A stretch of DNA of 10,956 nucleotides from a virus (Duplodnaviria; Heunggongvirae; Uroviricota; Caudoviricetes), in IMG/VR virus record IMGVR_UViG_2639762982_000012; one strand, given 5' to 3'. This document shows, in pieces, positions 823-10,956 of the stretch (positions are counted from its first letter, which is position 1; every line of letters begins with the position of its first letter). The notes below the pieces were generated by a model. That model did not search any database, was not told the DNA's origin, and saw nothing but the letters and a program-made list of their open reading frames with translations. The position numbers were made by a program, and so were the translations under genes.

Positions 823-1404
823 TTACTGGAACGCCCGAACAATATCGGAGCTATTATATATCGAAGAACCGGTCAACTGGAGGTTGACGGTGTTTTTCAG
901 GAAATGCCCATTGCTGTCCCTGGGCGCATCGAGATCGAAACTTATGTCCTGGATAGCGACATCAATGATGTTGATCCGGCGACCAATGTTTAGCGTCACA
1001 CGCTCCGGGATTCGACCACCAATGCTGGCATCTTTAAGTTCCGGGCTAATCATCGCTGACAATGCGGCGATAGCTCCTGAAACCTCCGTGAATGGGTCAA
1101 ACAAAGCGATGAAAGTTACTGGCAGCGTGAAAGTCGGCGGTGTTCCCCCCTCCCAAACCATTAAGCTGTTCCAACGGGCCACCGACGTTGTTTCAGTACC
1201 AACCTGCGCAAAACCACTGAAAGCACCAGCAACAGACCCCATGGACATACCGGTAAACGGCGCTTCCCAATTCTGGGCCATGTTCATTGCTGCCCCCTGG
1301 CTGATATATCCGGTAACCTGGTACTGAGAGTTCGTTAAAGTAACTTTCAGAAATGGCGATACACCGTCAGCCTGGCTGTAAACCCCATAAGGTATAGGTG
1401 CCAT
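823..1404 (-). CDS. Phage morphogenesis protein, 193 aa, function unknown
   Basis: ATG at 1402-1404; same-strand operon position between the acidic 271-aa gene and the tube-like gene. No recognisable motif. The SD lies 5' of a hairpin (see 1415-1439 feature). Confidence 0.5.
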   Translation of the reverse strand: MAPIPYGVYSQADGVSPFLKVTLTNSQYQVTGYISQGAAMNMAQNWEAPFTGMSMGSVAGAFSGFAQVGTETTSVARWNSLMVWEGGTPPTFTLPVTFIALFDPFTEVSGAIAALSAMISPELKDASIGGRIPERVTLNIGRRINIIDVAIQDISFDLDAPRDSNGHFLKNTVNLQLTGSSIYNSSDIVRAFQ

Positions 1405-1414
1405 TCAAGTTAAA

Positions 1415-1439
1415 GGCCGGAGTTCTCCGGCCTCCTCCT
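1415..1439 (-). promoter_or_regulatory. Intercistronic RNA hairpin placed between the Shine-Dalgarno and the start codon of the 193-aa gene
   Basis: Minus-strand mRNA reads TAA-AGGAGGAGG-CCGGAGAACTCCGGCC-TTTAACTTGA-ATG. GGCCGGA / TCCGGCC forms a 7-bp GC-rich stem with a 4-nt loop. AGGAGG sits immediately 5' of the stem and the ATG 10 nt 3' of it, so linear spacing is ~29 nt but folded spacing is about 10 nt. Confidence 0.45.
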
Positions 1440-2255
1440 TTAGCCAAGGCGCTTACGGCGCAGTTTCATTGACTTTTTGCGGGCAAGTTTTGCCGCGCCG
1501 GTCTGGGCTTTTCGACGCGCTTTTTTCAGCGCCGATTTTTGAGCCGCAGTCAGACGTTTTTTACGCAGGCGTTTACGGATGAGTTTGATCTCACCGTTAC
1601 GAACAACCTTCTTAAATGCTTCAGTCAGCATTTCATCAGAAGTGCCAGCAACAACAAACGCCGCTTCCAGTTCGTCGCGGTCGTCGCTATCTAAACCAGC
1701 GATAGAGGCACCAACATCAGCAGCAGCGTCGTCGTCTTCATCGTCAGCCAGTGCTTCGATCAGGTCATCATCTACACCGCATGCTGCGAGGAAGTCAGCA
1801 ACATTTGCCCATGCTTCGTTATAGGCATCGTCCTGTTCTTCTGTAACTTCGGAGTCGTCGTCATCAGAGATACCAGCGATAGCCTGAACGAAACCATCAA
1901 GGGAGTCGAAAGTCAGATCACCGCTATCAGCCCAGGAGAAAACGGCGTCGGCCGCATCACTCAACGCATTCTGCATAGCACTTCGATTTGCAGCTTCCAG
2001 AATCATCTGGTGCGCCTGTTCGACGGTCCATTCTTTACCATCTTTCCCTTCCAGGATTTGCTCAGGAGCCGGATCAGATGGAACATTATCGTTAGTCTGT
2101 GCCGCCGGTTCCGGATTATTATTAATAACCGGATCTGTTGGCGGTTCGGCGCTTGCTCGGGCAGACTCCATCAGCTGCACAGGATCAGAGTTCAAAGCGA
2201 AACGGGACAGTCCATTCCCCAAAAATGCCCCGGATTGAAAAAAGTTTTTGCTCAT
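1440..2255 (-). CDS. Acidic phage protein with a poly-basic C-terminal tail, 271 aa; morphogenetic or internal protein (function unknown)
   Basis: ATG at 2253-2255, 9 nt after the sheath stop. The central region is extremely D/E-rich (DDDDSEVTEEQDD, ALADDEDDDAAAD, LDSDDRDELE). The last ~50 residues are K/R-rich (KLIRKRLRKKRL...KKARRK...KLRRKRLG). Confidence 0.55.
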   Translation of the reverse strand: MSKNFFQSGAFLGNGLSRFALNSDPVQLMESARASAEPPTDPVINNNPEPAAQTNDNVPSDPAPEQILEGKDGKEWTVEQAHQMILEAANRSAMQNALSDAADAVFSWADSGDLTFDSLDGFVQAIAGISDDDDSEVTEEQDDAYNEAWANVADFLAACGVDDDLIEALADDEDDDAAADVGASIAGLDSDDRDELEAAFVVAGTSDEMLTEAFKKVVRNGEIKLIRKRLRKKRLTAAQKSALKKARRKAQTGAAKLARKKSMKLRRKRLG

Positions 2256-2264
2256 TGTATTCCC

Positions 2265-3854
2265 TTACTTAATAAGCAGCGGTACGCCCTGGATACGACG
2301 GGCTACGCCAGTCGGGCAGCAGGCCCAGACTACTTCCCATTTATCGAATTCCGCCTGCGTAACTTTCAGCACATACGGTTCTGTACCGTCAGCATCGGGA
2401 TCACGAGGAGCCACCAGAGCGCCGGAGGCGACAAAGCGATCTAAAAGTTTGGTCATCCCTTTAGTCAGGCCAGCCGCAGTAATACCGTCCGGGCTATGCT
2501 TCATCTGTCGGGCTAACTGGACAAAGAAACGGCTGATTGCATTCATCAGGGATGGGACGTGCTGGAAGTGCAGATAGTTATCCTGCGTGCAGCAAGTTAA
2601 AGCATCGTCGATGATCATCTGGCCAGAGGTGCCAACAGATACTTTATTGAGACGGCCCTTGACCATTGCTTCTTCGTCCGGGGTATCTTCCGGATACAGC
2701 GGTTGAATTGACGCACGAGCAATGACGGCACGTTCTTCACCAGCCGGTGAGTAATGCCAACCGCCGACATCAGAGTTTTTCTTGACGCCATGAGCTTTCG
2801 CCGCATACGCCACGCCAGACAGACCAAAGACCACACGGGATTGGGTCCATTTGTCTTTGCAGGAGAACGGGTAGTGATAGACAGAACAGCTTACATAATC
2901 GGTACCAAGTAAACCGGTACCCTCAACAGCTGTTAGTGCTTCTGCGTACCTTAATGTCGGTTTGACATCAAAGAAGCCATCAATCAGGCGATCTGCACAG
3001 ATTTTACCTAATGCGGTGATAGCCGCATTGTCATAGCAGCCCAGGCCAAGAACAGCGGTGTACATGTACGGCGCATTGTTCAGCACTTTCACCGCACGCA
3101 GGTACGCAGCGGTTGAGATTTTCGACTGATCACCGTTGGTACCACCAGTGAACGCCAACGATTTTTTGTTTGTTACTTTCGCTGTAGAAATCAGATCTTC
3201 ATTAACAACCGCGCGCAGATATTTAGAACGAGCTTCCAGAGCCGTAGGCAGATAACACAAGCGGCCCATGTCATCTTTCGCTTCTTCCGCCAAAGACACA
3301 GTGTGTGTCTCCAGGGTCGTTACCACACCAAGCGAAGTCGTCTGGGTCAGTTTTAAGATGAAGCGTTCATTACTCGCGCTGTCCGCTGTTGCCGTTTCGA
3401 TGGTTAACTCACGGGTAGGTGAAATACACGGATCACCATCATCAACGTAGATAGCAAAGGCTTCGCCGCTATCAAGTTCAATTTCAGAACCGTATGGCAA
3501 CGCACTGTAAGCCGGTTCGCCTGATTCATCGAACATAATAATCGGGAACTTCGCATCATCCGGAACAGCACGGACAACATAACCAGACGTTTGCTGAATA
3601 GCTTCGTATACATGGCGAATTGGTTCGAACTGTGGGCCGGAAGACGGCTTCAGCGGTTCGCCGAGAACATCTTCGTAATTGGACTCAGTAACCGCAAGAA
3701 CAGTAAACGGCTTGCCACGCGCAAATACGCCAATACCAGCCCACAAGCTGCTATTTAATGCAACACCGGTAGATAACGTCGCATCGGCATTGATCGGGCT
3801 AACCGCGACGCCGGATGCATTACCTAATGACTGTTGAATTGAATATTGAGACAT
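2265..3854 (-). CDS. Contractile tail sheath protein, 529 aa
   Basis: The N-terminal region (ATLSTGVALNSSLWAGIGVFARGKPF...TSGYVVRAV) parallels the T4 gp18-type sheath N-terminus (…TGTAALAGKFQWGPAF…RVVRAV, recalled). Size fits myovirus sheaths. Probably the equivalent of P1 gene 22, if my recollection of the P1 order 21-22-23-parB-parA-repA is right. Confidence 0.8.
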   Translation of the reverse strand: MSQYSIQQSLGNASGVAVSPINADATLSTGVALNSSLWAGIGVFARGKPFTVLAVTESNYEDVLGEPLKPSSGPQFEPIRHVYEAIQQTSGYVVRAVPDDAKFPIIMFDESGEPAYSALPYGSEIELDSGEAFAIYVDDGDPCISPTRELTIETATADSASNERFILKLTQTTSLGVVTTLETHTVSLAEEAKDDMGRLCYLPTALEARSKYLRAVVNEDLISTAKVTNKKSLAFTGGTNGDQSKISTAAYLRAVKVLNNAPYMYTAVLGLGCYDNAAITALGKICADRLIDGFFDVKPTLRYAEALTAVEGTGLLGTDYVSCSVYHYPFSCKDKWTQSRVVFGLSGVAYAAKAHGVKKNSDVGGWHYSPAGEERAVIARASIQPLYPEDTPDEEAMVKGRLNKVSVGTSGQMIIDDALTCCTQDNYLHFQHVPSLMNAISRFFVQLARQMKHSPDGITAAGLTKGMTKLLDRFVASGALVAPRDPDADGTEPYVLKVTQAEFDKWEVVWACCPTGVARRIQGVPLLIK

Positions 3855-5754: not shown

Positions 5755-5846
5755 CCAAGGTGAAGTCGTGGCGATTTCACCTTGAAATTTTAGAGGGATT
5801 TACTTTAAAAACAGTAGTTTAATAGTGAGATTTGAATGGCGAAAGT
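5755..5846 (-). other. parS: parS partition site (centromere): ParB box A heptamers and box B hexamers flanking an AT-rich putative IHF site
   Basis: Starts directly after the parB stop. Minus-strand reading: ACTT-TCGCCA (box B) - TTCAAATCTCAC (box A-like) - AT-rich TATTAAACTACTGTTTTTAAAGTAAAT - ATTTCAA (A) - GGTGAAAT (A, inverted) - TCGCCA (B) - CGACTTCAC (A-like). This matches the P1 parS layout as I recall it. Confidence 0.75.
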
Positions 5847-6848
5847 TTAAGGCTTCGGCTTTTTATCGAGGCTCTTTCTAAGGATATGCCCAATCATCCT
5901 GTCGAGTTCTTCCTGTAGCTCTTTTGAAAGTCGATTAAACTCATAAGAAAATGCACGGCCTTTCACGCGCTTCCTTGCAAAGCGATCCTTGTCCTCAAAT
6001 TTCCATAATTCAGTAACTACGGACTTATCTTTAGAACCTTTATCCGTGAGTAGTGAGGCTTCCTTTGTTATCAAGCGCAGGATTTTATTTTTAACTTCAT
6101 CTTCGGCCATTTCTTCAATGGATAAGATGTCGTTTATTTCCGGGGATATATTTTGAATAAGCTGATCAAACTCTAAATTCTTGTTCCCCATTTCGTCGCC
6201 AACAGCACAAAGCGTTTTGTAGTCCGAAAAGGTTAATTCCGACTGCACAGGGAAAAGGGCGACTAATTCTTCCGGAGCACTCGCTGCCTGGAGAGCACGC
6301 GTGACCTTCGCCTGAGACAGCCCTTCTTTGGCTGCAATATCCTTCTGACTCATCCCATCATTTTTCATTCGCATCAAACGCAGACCTATTTCTCGAATGC
6401 TGTGCTGCAATGCTGTCTGAACGTCTTTCGCTAAATTTAGCGCTTCCTGAACGCTGATCTCCTGGTCCGTGACTAAAACCCGCAACCCTACGTTCTCTAA
6501 GATGGCAGAAGCTCGACGCCGGGAACCATCCAAAATTTCAATTTTCCCTGTTGCCCGTCTAACACCTATTGCAGGGTAAAATTGCTGATGCTTAATAGTG
6601 CTTCGGATACTTTTTAATGATTTTGGCGTAAGAGATGCCTGGTCACGCCCGTTGTTATGCTGATCAACAAAGGTATCGCTTTCTACCTGGTTCGGAGGTA
6701 TTACCTCTTCAATAAATGTGGCCTGGCGACCAGTTGATAACTTGAATACCTGCTCGACTCGATCGCCAGAGGCTGAAGAACTATCAAATCCGCTTAATAT
6801 TGAAGGATTAAGGGTTCGCCCAATTGTTGGTCTGTTTTTCTTTGACAT
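5847..6848 (-). CDS. parB: ParB centromere-binding partition protein, 333 aa
   Basis: ATG at 6846-6848 with GGAG upstream, 16 nt after the parA stop. Length equals P1 ParB (333 aa). Followed immediately by parS. Confidence 0.9.
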   Translation of the reverse strand: MSKKNRPTIGRTLNPSILSGFDSSSASGDRVEQVFKLSTGRQATFIEEVIPPNQVESDTFVDQHNNGRDQASLTPKSLKSIRSTIKHQQFYPAIGVRRATGKIEILDGSRRRASAILENVGLRVLVTDQEISVQEALNLAKDVQTALQHSIREIGLRLMRMKNDGMSQKDIAAKEGLSQAKVTRALQAASAPEELVALFPVQSELTFSDYKTLCAVGDEMGNKNLEFDQLIQNISPEINDILSIEEMAEDEVKNKILRLITKEASLLTDKGSKDKSVVTELWKFEDKDRFARKRVKGRAFSYEFNRLSKELQEELDRMIGHILRKSLDKKPKP

Positions 6849-6864
6849 GGGGGTTTCTTACTCC

Positions 6865-8061
6865 TCAGTTAGATCTGATAAATTCAATACGGTCAAAAAC
6901 TGCTTTAGCAAAATCTTCCGCGGCAATTCGCGCGTTCTTCAATGCATCAGCACTACCAACATACGTTGCCGGGTTAGCTGAAATAACAGTGTCAAAAGAC
7001 TCGCCGCAACGTTCAAAACCGTCAAGGCGAGGGAGGACGACATCGAGCATATCCCCACCGAACACTTCTTTAGCCAGGCTATGGCAATACTTATGATCTG
7101 CCTTGTTACTCAACTTGGACATAAAACCAATGTTAGTCGCAAGCTGGCACTCGCAGCCTTCATCCGAAATGAGTTTCACCAACTCAGGAAGGCGGGCAAC
7201 GTATTTAAGCGATGAGTGGAAATCGACAGTTGCTGGCGGCAGAGGTGTAAACAGTATATTGGCCGAGGCCAAAGCATTTTTCAGGAAGGCGTCAAGGTGA
7301 GGACCACTATCAACGAGGATAAAATCATAATCGCTCTTCAGCTTATCAATCACATTTTCTTTCAGGACAGCATGGATGTTCTGACCCGGTAGATGCTCAT
7401 TGCACAGCTCTCTCCAATCGGATGCAATAAAGGCATCGTCAATCGACGCAGGCATAACGTCAACCCCAGGTACAACAGAAGGAACAATAAACTCCTCTAA
7501 CAGCTCTTCACGGCTTACATTCTGCAACATAGCCTGTGCAGATGTTGCGTTTACGATACCAATAGAGTGTTTATGGCTTAAAAACATCGTTGCTGAAGAT
7601 TGCGGATCAAGGTCAATAACCAGAATCCTTAAATCTTCCATCAGAAGATGAGGGTGAGCACGCATTGCATGCGCCAGAGAAACCGTCGATACAGTTTTTG
7701 ACACACCGCCTTTAAGATTGGAGATGAAAATCACATACGCTTCGCTGTAGCGATCCCGGTATTTTGGCACTCCGCGATGTTCATATATGTCAATGATGTT
7801 CTGAATTGACATCGCATATTTCATTGAAGAGCCAGCAGGGCGCTTATCGAAAACATAACCCTTTTCTTCCATTTCACTTACAGCATAGTCAACGTTCGCT
7901 CGAGTCAGTAGAGGCAATTTTGCCAGTGCCGCTTTCGCATAGACCTGGTAAAACTCGTTCGCGTGTAGCTCATCCTTTTGCAACTGTACTTGTTCAGTCA
8001 GAACATTGAGCATTCTATTTGCTCTTTGAGCAACCTTGTGAAGCTGGCTGGAATCACTCAT
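6865..8061 (-). CDS. parA: ParA partition ATPase (type Ia, with N-terminal regulatory extension), 398 aa
   Basis: Deviant Walker A motif KGGVSKT in ISNLKGGVSKTVS. The long N-terminal extension is typical of autoregulatory type Ia ParA/SopA. Length equals P1 ParA (398 aa). AAGGA RBS before the ATG at 8059-8061. Confidence 0.92.
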   Translation of the reverse strand: MSDSSQLHKVAQRANRMLNVLTEQVQLQKDELHANEFYQVYAKAALAKLPLLTRANVDYAVSEMEEKGYVFDKRPAGSSMKYAMSIQNIIDIYEHRGVPKYRDRYSEAYVIFISNLKGGVSKTVSTVSLAHAMRAHPHLLMEDLRILVIDLDPQSSATMFLSHKHSIGIVNATSAQAMLQNVSREELLEEFIVPSVVPGVDVMPASIDDAFIASDWRELCNEHLPGQNIHAVLKENVIDKLKSDYDFILVDSGPHLDAFLKNALASANILFTPLPPATVDFHSSLKYVARLPELVKLISDEGCECQLATNIGFMSKLSNKADHKYCHSLAKEVFGGDMLDVVLPRLDGFERCGESFDTVISANPATYVGSADALKNARIAAEDFAKAVFDRIEFIRSN

Positions 8062-8104
8062 CGAAAGTCATCCTTTATGCTGTATTTTTGAATTTAATTA
8101 AAAA

Positions 8105-8155
8105 AGCTGCATAAAATAATAATGTATGCGTAGATGCTTGTACATAGCATTCTCT
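8105..8155 (-). promoter_or_regulatory. Putative parA promoter/operator with imperfect palindromes
   Basis: ATGCTTGTACATAGCAT (8134-8150) is an imperfect 17-bp palindrome carrying a -35-like TGTACA on the minus strand, with a -10-like TATTAT about 16-17 nt downstream (plus ~8115-8123). GCATA-N11-TATGC lies at 8109-8129. Type Ia par operons are autorepressed at palindromic operators overlapping the promoter. Confidence 0.4.
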
Positions 8156-8200
8156 GCGTGTTTGGTTCATTTTGCACGATTGAGAGTTACAAGGAGGGCA

Positions 8201-8222
8201 CAAAAAAGCCCCGTTCAGGGGC
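8201..8222 (-). terminator. Rho-independent terminator immediately after the inserted module
   Basis: Minus strand: GCCCC-TGAAC-GGGGC followed by TTTTTT. It lies 8 nt after the stop (8230-8232) of the 86-codon ORF and upstream of the parA promoter. Confidence 0.75.
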
Positions 8223-8229
8223 ATCAGTG

Positions 8230-8490
8230 TTATTTGCTAAGAGCAGCGAATAATCGTTCGAAATCGATAGTATCTATAGCACGCGTAAGCGCCGGAAGTT
8301 CAGCCTCAAAGTACCCATGTCGATCGTAAAAGATGGGACCGAAGAGCGAGGCATGTTGGATTCTACTTCGCCCCAGCCCGGACACACAGTTAAGCCCATT
8401 ACCGGCTAAAAGGCTAAAAAACTTCTCTGGATTATCGTGGTAAAGCTGGGAATCAATGGTGGCGGTTAACTCTTCCATAGGGAAGCACAC
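8230..8490 (-). CDS. 86-codon ORF; probably the C-terminal part of the upstream GIY-YIG/T5orf172-like gene (same frame, separated by one TAA)
   Basis: Begins with GTG and has no convincing SD. It is in the same frame as 8512..9039 and separated from it by a single TAA (8512-8514) plus 7 sense codons (YPWDTGR). No recognisable motif. Confidence 0.4.
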   Translation of the reverse strand: MCFPMEELTATIDSQLYHDNPEKFFSLLAGNGLNCVSGLGRSRIQHASLFGPIFYDRHGYFEAELPALTRAIDTIDFERLFAALSK

Positions 8491-8511
8491 CCGCCCTGTA
8501 TCCCAGGGATA

Positions 8512-9039
8512 TTAAGTCCGAAGCATAAACATTGCTTTCAGCAATTCACACTGAGCGCGGATCGCGTCCGGTTCATAGCCAGATATGGAGACATAAGCCA
8601 CGTCCCTCATTCCTGCGTCATCTTTGAAAGTCACGATAGAAGTAACATCCAGCTCTTTTTCGAAAGAGCAAGCAGCATCTACTGGACGCTGAAGTAAATC
8701 ATTCGACTTAATGCGCTCGAGAATCCCTCCCCACATATCATTTAGATATTCGATATGAGCCAAAACCTTATCAAGACACTCTCGTGTAAACCATTCAGTA
8801 TGCCCGCCACCTGCGCTTTTCTCCCACGGCGCATTCCAGGGGAAAAAGGTTGCGTGTAAAGCCCGCTCAAGATTAACCATTGCCAAACGCGTACCACGAT
8901 AGACCCGTGAAAGCGCAAAATCGGGACTCACTTGTAGCCCTTTAAACCGTGCCAATGGACCACATGAAATGCCGATTTTAAAAGTATCTCCGTTCTCCGG
9001 CACCAGAACGTAGAGGTAGTGTTGTTTCTCTTCTTGCAT
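8512..9039 (-). CDS. GIY-YIG superfamily (T5orf172-like) domain protein, 175 aa as written; possibly truncated by a nonsense codon
   Basis: N-terminal YLYVL-(10 aa)-FKIGIS-(6 aa)-R ... ALHATFF ... GGGHTEWF reproduces the GIY / YIG / Arg / Glu spacing of GIY-YIG-type domains in the T5orf172 / MUG113 style. ATG at 9037-9039 directly abuts the incA-like iterons. Weak SD. Confidence 0.6.
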   Translation of the reverse strand: MQEEKQHYLYVLVPENGDTFKIGISCGPLARFKGLQVSPDFALSRVYRGTRLAMVNLERALHATFFPWNAPWEKSAGGGHTEWFTRECLDKVLAHIEYLNDMWGGILERIKSNDLLQRPVDAACSFEKELDVTSIVTFKDDAGMRDVAYVSISGYEPDAIRAQCELLKAMFMLRT

Positions 9040-9073
9040 ATCAATACCACTGCTTGATGAGAACCGCGCAAAT

Positions 9074-9330
9074 GTTGACTATGCGCGAAAGTTAATGTGA
9101 ATAGTTGACTATGCGCGATGTGACTACAGTCAAAAGTTGACTGTAGTCGATTTAACTCCACCAAAAATCGACTATGTAAGATATTGTCGGGAGAAACGTT
9201 GACTATACGCGATGAAATGACCCTAAAAGCCATCTCAATAGCGACTTGCAGAATATTGACGCCAGCAAAAATCCACCAGCGTCAACGAATGTCGCCTATA
9301 GTCAACTTCTCGCTATCGCATATAGTCAAT
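9074..9330. repeat. incA-like iteron array (RepA binding sites, both orientations) downstream of repA
   Basis: At least seven copies of a ~15-bp motif, GTTGACTATRCGCGA. Forward copies at 9074-9088, 9104-9118 and 9198-9212. Inverted copies at 9291-9306 and 9316-9330. Degenerate copies near 9168-9180 and 9255-9289. A perfect 13-3-13 palindrome, TGACTACAGTCAA-AAG-TTGACTGTAGTCA, spans 9121-9149. Confidence 0.8.
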
Positions 9331-9331
9331 A

Positions 9332-10216
9332 TTATGGATTGCGCTTATGGATCTGGAAGCCGATTTTCCTGCCGTTTTTTATCTCTGAAAATTTAAGATA
9401 TTCAATAGCTTCCAAATCTTTCATAGCTTTTCTGATAACGCTATTTTGCACGCTAACGGATGATTTGAGATTAAGCCTTGCTCTAAGGCGCTCAATGCTG
9501 ACAGGTGCCGGGTTGGCGGGTAGAGCCTCAAAGAATGTATACAGCACCTTGGCCGTCTCTTTGCGCCCGAGCTTATCCAGCATCTTCAGCTTCAGGATTC
9601 GCTTATAGTCAACATAGTAAAGTTCAGATAGCTGTTTCTGCGGCTGGATCTCGATAACATCAAGCTCGGTATTCAGGCTGCTATATGCCAACAAGTTGAC
9701 GTTAATGTTATTGAGATGACCTTTTGCCGCCGGGAAGCGGAATTTGACAACTGTCTGCTGAATGCGTGTCAGAGAGTCATCAATACTTTTACGGAACGCC
9801 TTTGAAAGGCGCTTACGTGGATAGCCGCATCGATCGGCAAACTCGGAGAATGGCAGGGTGATTATGCCGTCATCATCAGGTGCGTAGTCAAACAACGCGG
9901 AGGTTATGCCCACCCACACCTTAAAATCAGTATCCATATCCAGGCGTGGACCATGTATTTCAATTCCCTCATAGCCTTCCTGCTCAACAATTTTGAGGCT
10001 TGATAGTTCTTCGGTTGCGTTCGTTGTGTTTGTAGTAACTGACGATCCGCGACGTAGTGCCACATTGGTAGATTTTAAGGTTGGCACAAACACACCTAAG
10101 CGCAACAAAGCGATGGGTTGTATAGTGCTATTGTTATTGGGTTTCAGGCTGTGGATTTCTCCTGTATTTCCTGCAACTTCTTCAACGCTAAGGAAGCCTT
10201 TATTTTCTTCCGGCAT
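9332..10216 (-). CDS. repA: RepA replication initiator (iteron-binding), ~294 aa
   Basis: Flanked on both sides by iterons. Start chosen at the ATG at 10214-10216, which has GGAG 8 nt upstream; the longer frame from the TTG at 10273 lacks an RBS. Internal motifs (QPIALLRLGVFVP, GPRLDMDTDFK) resemble what I recall of the P1 RepA family. P1 RepA is 286 aa. Confidence 0.85.
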   Translation of the reverse strand: MPEENKGFLSVEEVAGNTGEIHSLKPNNNSTIQPIALLRLGVFVPTLKSTNVALRRGSSVTTNTTNATEELSSLKIVEQEGYEGIEIHGPRLDMDTDFKVWVGITSALFDYAPDDDGIITLPFSEFADRCGYPRKRLSKAFRKSIDDSLTRIQQTVVKFRFPAAKGHLNNINVNLLAYSSLNTELDVIEIQPQKQLSELYYVDYKRILKLKMLDKLGRKETAKVLYTFFEALPANPAPVSIERLRARLNLKSSVSVQNSVIRKAMKDLEAIEYLKFSEIKNGRKIGFQIHKRNP

Positions 10217-10295
10217 CGTGGTTTCTCCATATGTGGCGCGGCCTGGCGTCATCTGGATTGCAGTTATCAACAACTGTGAATAGTCAGGCTCTAAA

Positions 10296-10397
10296 ATCGC
10301 GTACAGTCAATGTTTCTGTCGCGTATAGTCAACAATAAATCGCGTGCAGTCAACAATAAATCGTGCACAGTCAACATAAAATCGCGTATAGTCAATG
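10296..10397. repeat. incC-like iterons: five direct repeats at 21-22 bp spacing between the origin and repA
   Basis: TCGCGTACAGTCAATG (10297), TCGCGTATAGTCAACA (10319), TCGCGTGCAGTCAACA (10340), TCGTGCACAGTCAACA (10361), TCGCGTATAGTCAATG (10382). Same motif as the incA-like array, all in one orientation, two helical turns apart. Expected to overlap the repA promoter. Confidence 0.85.
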
Positions 10398-10436
10398 TTG
10401 ATCCCATTTCAGGCCAGAAATGGCGCGGCTTACAGC

Positions 10437-10510
10437 GATCCGGGATCTTCTTTGGATCTTCCTAGGTTCTCTTTAGGATCTGTTTATTGGATCTATGCTG
10501 TGGATAAGTT
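10437..10510. other. oriR-like replication origin core: five clustered GATC (Dam) sites plus a DnaA box
   Basis: GATC at 10437, 10444, 10455, 10477 and 10490 within ~57 bp, in RGGATCT-like heptamers. DnaA box TGTGGATAA at 10499-10507. One-mismatch DnaA boxes on the other side of the iterons (TTATCAACA 10264-10272, TGTGAATAG 10275-10283). Matches the known P1 oriR layout of Dam-methylated heptamers plus DnaA boxes next to incC. Confidence 0.7.
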
Positions 10511-10771
10511 GAATAAACCGGCCAATAAAGCCGGTTGGAAGGAAGCCGTATTATTCTACGCTCTCGATAAGAAGACCATGTTCATCGATAGGAATTTAAA
10601 TCCCAAAAAGATTAAAAAAACACCCAAAAACGGATGTTTATTCAACACTGCCTGCGTGCCATGAGTGCACCGCCATCAATTAAATGGATCTTATCGAGTG
10701 ATACTGTATATCACTGATGGTTTTTTTACTCCATTCCCCTGAAAATGGACGCAACTTCCCCGATGCGGCTC

Positions 10772-10956
10772 TCAGCCGCACACCCGCTGTTGCGCCAGTG
10801 GCTCATGCATCAGGACCAGCTCTGTCAGACGGTAGCCCCGCTTCAGCCCCGTAAAACGCATCTGACATCCGCACAGGATGCACTTTAGCGGGTCAACCTT
10901 CAGTAACCGCTGATACATCCCTCTCCACCTGATTTGCATCGCCGTCTTTCTCACCG
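10772..10956 (-). CDS. C-terminal 60 codons of an ORF running in from the right edge; CxxC-containing, function unknown
   Basis: The frame is open to the last base of the window and stops at 10772-10774. Contains ...DPLKCILCGCQMRF..., vaguely like Zn-ribbon C-termini of some transposases, but I cannot place it. Confidence 0.3.
   Translation of the reverse strand, partial: VRKTAMQIRWRGMYQRLLKVDPLKCILCGCQMRFTGLKRGYRLTELVLMHEPLAQQRVCG

Follow-up and report, generated by a model that had tools for sequence, protein, structure and literature searches.

The locus described here raises the question of whether a phage-plasmid with a P1-type partition system also carries the P1 replicon, or whether the P1 plan is filled by a replicon of different iteron specificity, as an earlier note on this DNA had proposed from the sequence. 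The parts of that proposal open to sequence comparison were all borne out. P1-like phage-plasmids are vehicles in the spread of ESBL and other resistance genes, and replicon typing follows them as IncY or p0111. We analyzed the whole 10,956-nt stretch (the window) of the Caudoviricetes record IMGVR_UViG_2639762982_000012, and the features identified are collected in Table 1. We conclude with high confidence that the segment from 8164 to approximately 10540 is a p0111-type plasmid-prophage replicon cassette of a P1-like phage-plasmid, namely an iteron-controlled theta replicon that follows the P1 oriR/incC-repA-incA plan with its own initiator-iteron pair. The replicon is the already catalogued p0111 type and not a new one, and the literature contrasts p0111 with IncY in P1-like phage-plasmids (PMC9603915, PMC10879196, PMC11165635, PMC5241659).

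Table 1. Features of the replicon cassette and the adjoining partition module (positions in the window).
Feature	Position	Strand	Basis or remark
P1-type partition module, retained	5760..8163	-	par promoter region; parA 6865-8061; parB 5847-6848; parS 5760-5842
Exchanged replicon cassette	8164..10540	-	about 2.4 kb; flank alignments to P1
Terminator-like hairpin with T-run	8208..8222	-	just past the full-length T5orf172 frame; about 45 bp inside the right cassette edge
T5orf172/GIY-YIG-like gene, pseudogene here	8227..9039	-	between incA' and par
incA-equivalent control array	9073..9331	both	position-weight scan; 6 strong iterons and 1 decayed
Downstream iterons, opposite orientation	9073-9091, 9103-9121, 9135-9153, 9197-9215	+	spacing 30/32/62
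Weak, decayed in-phase iteron copy	9166-9184	+	position-weight scan
Downstream iterons, same orientation as origin array	9289-9307, 9313-9331	-	9313-9331 copy abuts the repA' stop codon
repA', p0111-type initiator, 294 aa	9332..10216	-	ATG at 10216; GGAG Shine-Dalgarno upstream; Rep3 WH1+WH2 family
Iteron-like site inside repA', GTTGACTATAAGCGA	9596..9614	-	one mismatch to core; encodes VDYKR
repA' leader	10217..10293	-	most variable stretch among alleles (13% of columns)
One-mismatch DnaA-box-like site in leader, TTATCAACA	10264-10272	+	
Origin array, incC-equivalent, five direct 19-bp iterons	10294..10397	-	position-weight scan; phasing as P1 incC
Origin iteron copies	10294-10312, 10316-10334, 10337-10355, 10358-10376, 10379-10397	-	position-weight scan
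G+C-rich spacer between GATC repeats and iterons, GCCGCGCCATTTCTGGCC (repA sense)	10410..10431	-	conserved with P1 oriR
GATC-site cluster, presumed Dam/SeqA-controlled opening region	10437..10494	-	alignment with P1 oriR heptamers
Consensus DnaA box, TTATCCACA	10499..10507	-	outer origin end; aligned with annotated P1 DnaA site
Degenerate second DnaA box, TTATTCAAC	10508-10516		adjoins the consensus box, where P1 has two tandem boxes

The assignment to p0111 was made through the identity of the initiator, RepA', to that of JL22 (100%), which was typed as p0111 in PMC9603915; RepA' is also 100% identical to that of SJ46 and 99.7% identical to that of RCS47. The PlasmidFinder reference for p0111 is AP010962, as cited in PMC11165635. 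The PLSDB (MOB-suite) label for the cassette plasmids is 'IncHI1B', which was not relied on for typing. At 97.5–100% identity, the cassette is present in SJ46, RCS47, JL22, and approximately 400 plasmids. It is in use, being carried by 399 plasmids of PLSDB and by 415 of 5,426 complete E. coli genomes. The p0111 elements SJ46, RCS47, JL22, and pSvP1 represent the same element, as DNA identity over 9000–10560 is 97.5–100%, RepA identity is 99.3–100%, and both the T5orf172 neighbor (called 'gp57' in the JL22 paper) and a par of the P1 type are shared; no substantive difference was found. The allele in the window has details of its own: the T5orf172 gene is interrupted by a nonsense codon, parS carries a substitution in box A1, and an IS91-family element is inserted in upfA, 79 bp from the DnaA box.

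The window shows full identity to pSvP1_F, a 139-kb cointegrate with the MOB-suite type 'IncFIB, IncHI1B'; since pSvP1_F also types as IncFIB, the cassette need not be its sole working replicon. It is nevertheless very unlikely that the p0111 unit is a silent or decaying passenger maintained by another replicon: the MOB-suite type, the T5orf172 pseudogene, and the nearby IS91-family element would fit such decay, but no damage is seen in repA', in any of the 11 strong iterons, in the DnaA box, or in the GATC cluster, these parts are 100% identical in P1-like plasmids of approximately 97–100 kb that show no second replicon label, and the IS end falls outside the stretch corresponding to the annotated P1 oriR.

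The alignments to P1 place the cassette where P1 has its oriR-repA-incA, and the synteny upfA-ori-repA-par is kept. Its right junction with P1-identical DNA is sharp at 8163/8164, and the left junction lies at approximately 10540–10620, at the 3' end of upfA. The upfA-side flank is 98–100% identical to P1 (measured in SJ46) and the par-side flank 99.1% identical at the nucleotide level over 8163–3140; from the flanks into the cassette, the DNA identity drops to unalignable within a few bases. In addition, approximately 150 PLSDB plasmids match the par half only, and these matches end at 8163. These boundaries bear out the modular exchange that had been suggested for this element, as does a version of the cassette, with an 85%-identical RepA, in the replicon slot of the D6-like phage-plasmid pNCYU-26-73-5 (CP042620.1). 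This version shows the cassette moving as a unit. That the outer origin half resembles P1 was also considered as the trace of a recombination junction; this was rejected, because in the D6-like backbone the cassette comes with the same GATC/DnaA-box sequence and P1 identity reaches 98–100% only beyond approximately 10620.

RepA' is homologous to P1/P7 RepA over its full length at 41–43% identity (E = 2e-59) and to RepFIB-like initiators at 44–53%. It matches the Pfam profile Rep3_C at 27.3 bits, above the cut-off, and Rep3_N at 22.0 bits, just under the cut-off of 22.4; P1 RepA itself is similarly borderline on the Rep3 profiles. The protein also matches phrog_775, and a fold search with its AlphaFold model (mean pLDDT 71) retrieved RctB, RepE, pi, and pPS10 RepA at probability 1.00. 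Searching the PDB by sequence yielded no significant match for RepA', and NCBIfam gave none for RepA' or the T5orf172 protein. The gene is under purifying selection, with 9–12 synonymous and 0–1 nonsynonymous codon differences from the SJ46 and RCS47 alleles. The RepA proteins of members with proven IncY incompatibility are at least 72–73% identical to P1 RepA (PMC10999674). By sequence, the cassette would lie outside this group, as RepA' reaches only 41–43% and the iterons are RTTGACTRTRNRCGAY and not GATGTGTGCTGGAGGGAAA; a high-identity alignment of P1 RepA and iterons, which the earlier note had named as the result that would overturn its reading, was looked for, and only this low RepA identity and unrelated iterons were obtained.

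The cassette variant of pNCYU-26-73-5 lies between homologues of pmgB and tub, in the slot of D6's own Rep3-family gene orf42. In common with the window, it has the iteron consensus, the array of five iterons at 21 bp, a 2+4 arrangement downstream, the origin half with the GATC sites and DnaA box, and the iteron-like site within repA; it differs in DNA identity (77%), in lacking the T5orf172 gene and an adjacent par, and in the spacing of the downstream array (32/30/31 versus 30/32/62). The presence of this variant in a D6-like backbone weighs against the explanation that P1's own oriR-repA-incA diverged in place by vertical descent, which we consider highly improbable. A P1-homologous architecture and outer origin half, together with the conserved synteny, would be expected under such descent; the abrupt identity step at both flanks would not, nor would an initiator that is no closer to P1 RepA than to unrelated RepFIB-like initiators. 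Furthermore, a search of 5.8 billion proteins found no RepA' intermediates between 85% and 53% identity, and 17 IncY/p0111 switches were inferred on a core-gene tree (PMC11165635).

The iterons were located by scanning. The motif GTTGACTATRCGCGA, with up to three mismatches, has 13 matches in the window versus 0.40 expected (0 of 200 shuffles reached 13), and 12 of the 13 fall within 9074–10396. The consensus is RTTGACTRTRNRCGAY, which is unrelated to the P1/P7 iteron GATGTGTGCTGGAGGGAAA; the latter, as given in the earlier note, is the exact sequence annotated in AF234172. Within the consensus, TTGACT and CGA are invariant across 22 copies, which come from two alleles with 77% identity. The analysis confirmed the five direct iterons, the mixed-orientation array, and the GATC cluster that the first reading had described as a P1 oriR/incC/repA/incA blueprint, and the geometry does match that of P1. 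The five direct iterons stand at two-helical-turn phasing immediately upstream of repA', with start-to-start distances of 22/21/21/21, or 21/21/21/22 in the repA sense, which is the annotated P1 incC spacing. Downstream of repA', two same-sense copies, four opposite-sense copies, and one decayed copy form an array whose phasing of approximately 31 bp resembles that of P1 incA. It is scarcely credible that the repeats are operators for another regulator, such as the T5orf172 protein, or mobile-element remnants. The RepA' sites are predicted ones, and the TTGACT of each repeat, a 5/6 match to the −35 hexamer, might be promoter-like, which would suit that alternative. Against it, the number, phasing, orientation, and position of the repeats reproduce the experimentally defined P1 arrays, the D6-like allele has kept the repeats with repA' although it lacks the T5orf172 gene, and SSU5, of the same RepA family, shows this layout with a third type of repeat.

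A further candidate site lies within repA' itself. This intragenic site scores 18.6 versus 23–27 for the array copies and is unchanged in the D6-like allele, which is 77% identical. Its conservation could result from coding constraint alone; it may also serve as a functional twelfth site for RepA'.

The outer half of the origin is the part that resembles P1 in sequence, as it aligns to P1 oriR at approximately 77–79% up to the first iteron, and identity then falls to 36% across the iteron array. Six GATC sites occur in 10400–10493, versus 0.45 expected per 110 bp (Poisson P = 8e-6); four of the six are AGATCCN heptamers that align with the five Dam-methylation heptamers of P1 oriR, and the cluster sequence is also found in the D6-like allele. 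Matches to the DnaA box are not above chance across the window (3 versus 2.5 expected), so the assignment of the consensus box follows from its position and its alignment to P1 oriR.

The anatomy of the sequence, its homology, the cassette boundaries, their distribution, and the purifying selection are shown by the comparisons made here; by homology with P1, we infer RepA'-iteron binding, autoregulation, handcuffing, and dependence on Dam and DnaA. RepA' monomers would bind the five phased iterons and, together with host DnaA at the consensus box, would open the adjacent Dam-methylated GATC-heptamer region. The six to seven iterons 3' of repA' would titrate RepA' and pair, or 'handcuff', with the origin iterons, keeping the copy number low. 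A scan of 8000–10620, including 10217–10400, found no minus-strand sigma-70 consensus promoter for repA', a manual search for −35/−10 pairs inside the iterons gave weak candidates only, and no −10 matching the iteron TTGACT was seen. Since no consensus repA' promoter was recognized in or beside the iterons, P1-style autorepression is a putative feature. The searchable literature yielded no experimental work on iteron binding by RepA', on copy control, or on incompatibility of the p0111 replicon, and no account of its iteron-level anatomy, as no paper with 'p0111' and 'iteron' describes the sites.

Compared with P1/P7 (IncY), the cassette thus shares the part order, the origin phasing, the two-orientation downstream array, and a homologous outer origin half and RepA. 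It differs in having six to seven downstream iterons instead of the nine (3 + 6) of P1, one consensus DnaA box at the outer end where P1 has two, an extra T5orf172 gene between incA' and par, and no promoter recognized inside the iterons. The RepFIB-like replicons of Enterobacterales plasmids and SSU5-like phage-plasmids have an initiator of the same family at the 44–53% identity given above. SSU5 follows the same blueprint, in that repeats at 21-bp phasing precede rep and an array of mixed orientation follows it, but its iteron is ACCACTGTAGAGAGTA-like and its Rep is longer (approximately 335–355 aa versus 294).

The partition module next to the cassette is that of P1. Both ParA and ParB carry their Pfam domains and are each 99.7% identical to P1, versus 57.8% and 42.1% to P7, respectively, and the proposed pairing of a P1-type partition system with a different replicon is upheld by these values beside the 41–43% of RepA'. 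The parS site matches P1 at 76 of 83 positions. As had been recognized from its boxes, parS is P1-like: both B boxes are TCGCCA as in P1, A2 and A3 are unchanged, and A1 (ATcTCAC) and A4 (AcTTCAC) each have one substitution. Box B2 sets the specificity (PMC10999674, citing Dabrazhynetskaya 2005), and the principle of par-based incompatibility is stated in the same paper. Because the par system and box B2 are those of P1, the element should still show partition (incB) incompatibility with P1; the 'different incompatibility group' put forward in the earlier note can be argued from the sequence for replication-based incompatibility (incA/incC) only. Recombination has swapped the IncY replicon for the p0111 cassette and left the P1 parABS untouched, and the replication-control specificity has therefore changed while the partition specificity has not.

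The p0111 type can thus be described as a clean cassette swap, in which the initiator-iteron specificity changed and the host-factor half of the P1 origin and par were kept; IncY and p0111 are therefore interchangeable on one backbone. Both replicons occur together in 2 of 5,426 complete E. coli genomes versus approximately 28 expected, and on separate records. Such a swap also suggests why IncY and p0111 rarely co-reside despite their different 'Inc' labels. The iteron map supplies sites for mini-replicon, incompatibility, and copy-control work, and it leaves the current understanding unchanged.

The T5orf172 gene accompanies the replicon closely. The two share their distribution in PLSDB (401 versus 399 records, with the same hosts), by which an independent movement of the gene was rejected, and the gene is absent from the D6-like allele. 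In the window, a nonsense codon at 8512–8514 shortens the product to 175 aa; that of RCS47 is intact at 269 aa. It is possible, but unlikely, that this T5orf172/GIY-YIG-like gene is a present or former homing-type nuclease that drives the replacement of IncY by the p0111 cassette in co-infected cells, and since the gene does not move independently of the replicon, there is no positive evidence for homing. If true, homing would explain why the junctions are sharp, why IncY-to-p0111 switches recur on the P1-like phylogeny, and why the two replicon types are split roughly evenly, as well as the independent decay of the gene after cassette fixation, the nonsense mutations in the window and in SJ46 being different.

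The present analysis identified the replicon of the window as that of the p0111 type, already described for P1-like phage-plasmids. The 1.56-kb replicon region is 97.5–99.2% identical in SJ46, JL22, RCS47, phi456 and further P1-like phages and is present in 399 PLSDB plasmids, and RepA', the p0111-type initiator encoded in the window, is 99.3–100% identical in phage records. The segment 5700–10956 is 100% identical to pSvP1_F (MN510446.1), a plasmid reported to have gained two ORFs between repA and parA and to differ in its incompatibility determinants (PMC6906374). JL22 carries 'repA' (p0111)' and an unknown gene, gp57, in place of repA (IncY), and the p0111 type was found in 24 of 55 P1-like phage-plasmids (PMC9603915). 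Further surveys counted 63 p0111 and 52 IncY types among 119 (PMC10879196), and 132 against 94 in Salmonella, with 17 switches inferred on the core tree (PMC11165635); a RepA identity of 42% was also reported (PMC5241659). Therefore, the modular exchange proposed in the earlier note, a P1-type partition system joined to another replicon, is established knowledge. Our literature search yielded no description of the iterons of the p0111 replicon.

The repeated motif is real: with three or fewer mismatches allowed, GTTGACTATRCGCGA has 13 matches in the window where 0.40 would be expected, a count attained in none of 200 shuffles, and 12 of the matches lie inside 9074–10396. The consensus from 22 copies in two alleles, that of the window and the D6-like one of CP042620.1 (pNCYU-26-73-5), is RTTGACTRTRNRCGAY, in which TTGACT (positions 2–7) and CGA (13–15) are invariant. 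Every base of the iteron-like site within repA' is the same in the 77%-identical D6-like allele. The site may serve RepA' as an additional binding position, or coding constraint may simply maintain it.

Features of the replicon region and their coordinates in the window
Feature	Coordinates	Strand	Remarks
Terminator-like hairpin	8208-8222		inside cassette
T5orf172/GIY-YIG-like gene	8227-9039	minus	inside cassette
Six strong iterons	9073-9331	4 plus, 2 minus	weight-matrix scan and repeat finder
Weak, decayed iteron copy	9166-9184		in exact phase with both neighbours (31 + 31 bp)
repA' ORF	9332-10216	minus	294 aa from ATG, GGAG before ATG; between both iteron arrays
Iteron-like site GTTGACTATAAGCGA	9596-9614	minus	within repA' coding sequence, codons VDYKR
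Five direct iterons	10294-10397	minus	weight-matrix scan and repeat finder
Consensus DnaA box TTATCCACA	10499-10507

RctB, RepE, pi and pPS10 RepA are iteron initiators. RepA' has a Rep3 WH2 domain, with a WH1 score slightly under the Pfam cut-off, and its predicted AlphaFold structure (26 homologues; mean pLDDT 71) resembles all four of these proteins (probability 1.00).

Compared with the annotated P1 region of AF234172, all elements of the claimed P1-style layout were found, namely the GATC cluster, five direct iterons, repA and a two-orientation array. The five origin iterons are spaced as in P1 (21/21/21/22 bp in the repA sense), and the array downstream of repA' holds 2 + 4 copies plus the decayed one at 30–32 bp, whereas P1 incA has 3 + 6, also in both orientations, at ~31–41 bp. 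The outer origin half, where the DnaA boxes, the AGATCC heptamers and a spacer rich in G+C lie, shows homology with P1 oriR (~77–79% by direct alignment), but identity falls to 36% exactly at the start of the iterons and remains so across them, and RepA' is only 41–43% identical to P1/P7 RepA over a full-length alignment. The annotated P1 iteron, GATGTGTGCTGGAGGGAAA, exactly matches the sequence given in the earlier note, and neither it nor P1 RepA aligns with this region at high identity; the iterons are unrelated to those of P1.

Since the window is interrupted on the upfA side, this boundary was measured in SJ46 as an uninterrupted proxy, in which identity to P1 is 98–100% beyond ~10620, 92% across the last ~80 nt of upfA and 61–80% in the origin. 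On the other side, a par+rep query aligns with ~150 PLSDB plasmids over its par half alone, with matches stopping at 8163, and with 382 further plasmids over both halves contiguously. Given these flanks and the drop in identity at both sides, a ~2.4-kb cassette (8164 to ~10540) has replaced ~1.5 kb of P1. In the window, the interruption of upfA is the end of an IS91-family element (10586–10956), whose transposase gene continues past the window end; it lies 79 bp from the DnaA box of the origin, and no more than the final 34 nt of upfA (10552–10585) are left. This junction is common only to pSvP1_F among the matches listed, and ETEC1731 plasmid unnamed6 (NZ_CP122822.1) has an intact upfA with IS91 ~1.2 kb further out.

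In the window, the T5orf172 gene carried by the cassette has become a pseudogene (nonsense codon at 8512–8514, 175 aa); it is cut by another nonsense codon in SJ46 (227 aa) and is intact in RCS47 (269 aa). Such independent decay across lineages is what a selfish nuclease gene would be expected to show once fixed. In PLSDB, however, the gene is distributed together with the replicon (401 and 399 records, respectively) and was never found without it.

CP042620.1, with a D6-like backbone, carries (5800–7250) a 77%-identical version of the cassette, with a RepA 85% identical, between homologues of pmgB and tub, at the position occupied in phage D6 by a Rep3-family gene of its own, orf42 (D6 1342–2097). 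This version has the same iteron consensus, 5 × 21-bp array, 2+4 downstream layout and GATC/DnaA-box half, but lacks the T5orf172 gene. These comparisons show that the GATC/DnaA-box half is a component of the cassette and not of the P1 backbone, that the cassette is a mobile unit, and that replicon cassettes are also exchanged within the D6 group. Among database proteins, the RepA' family comprises an exact cluster and variants at 85–94%, followed, after a gap, by Proteus (53%) and a large RepFIB-like cloud (44–49%); P1 RepA is not nearer to RepA' than these relatives. SSU5, also of the RepA family (45%), shows this layout with a third type of iteron.

The strong iterons, the DnaA box and the GATC cluster (six sites in 10400–10493, 0.45 expected) are all intact. 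By analogy with P1, RepA' would bind the phased iterons, the methylated heptamer region would be opened with DnaA help, and the downstream array would act through RepA' titration and handcuffing. A consensus scan gave no repA' promoter, so P1-style autorepression is a putative feature. Codon differences are 9 synonymous and 0 nonsynonymous from SJ46, and 12 and 1 from RCS47; purifying selection is acting on repA'. The repA' leader (10217–10293), containing a DnaA-box-like TTATCAACA at 10264–10272, is the most variable cassette part when the window is compared with SJ46 and RCS47 (variation in 13% of columns, against ~2% in repA', iterons and T5orf172 gene).

From 8163 down to 3140, the window is 99.1% identical to P1 through the par promoter, parA, parB, parS and genes 23 and 22, and both ParA and ParB match those of P1 at 99.7% identity, against 58% and 42% for P7. 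RCS47 ParA and ParB were reported to be those of P7 (PMC5241659); the deposited sequence (1348–3562) contradicts this, with identities of 99.7% and 100% for P1 against 58% and 42% for P7. Substitutions concentrate in parS (5760–5842, 83 bp): the 5,024-bp block shows 45 differences from P1, and 7 of these lie there. The boxes are P1-like as noted earlier, A2, A3 and both B boxes (TCGCCA) being unchanged, with substitutions in A1 (ATTTCAC to ATCTCAC, in the window only), A4 (to ACTTCAC) and the IHF site; RCS47 parS equals that of P1.

P1 replication incompatibility is set by the iterons. As IncY members of proven incompatibility have RepA at least 72–73% identical and near-identical iterons (PMC10999674), the window replicon is, judged from its sequence, outside IncY. 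A conserved ParB–parS interaction, with box B2 decisive, makes a plasmid partition-incompatible with P1 (PMC10999674). Because of its P1-like ParB and TCGCCA boxes, the element should still clash with P1 via incB, phage immunity aside. The suggested different incompatibility group would thus apply to replication and probably not to partition; with this caveat, the earlier observation is confirmed and its interpretation supported. In an in silico proxy of co-residence on 5,426 complete E. coli genomes, 415 had the p0111 replicon, 361 the IncY replicon and 774 either, so that only 2 had both, against ~27.6 predicted by independence; no single record carried both. Co-residence is thus possible and strongly depleted, which fits retained partition incompatibility or immunity and is not attributable to one cause.

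MOB-suite (PLSDB; NZ_CP122822.1, NZ_MN510446.1) types plasmids carrying this replicon as 'IncHI1B', a label that looks misleading; PlasmidFinder-based papers name the same replicon p0111.
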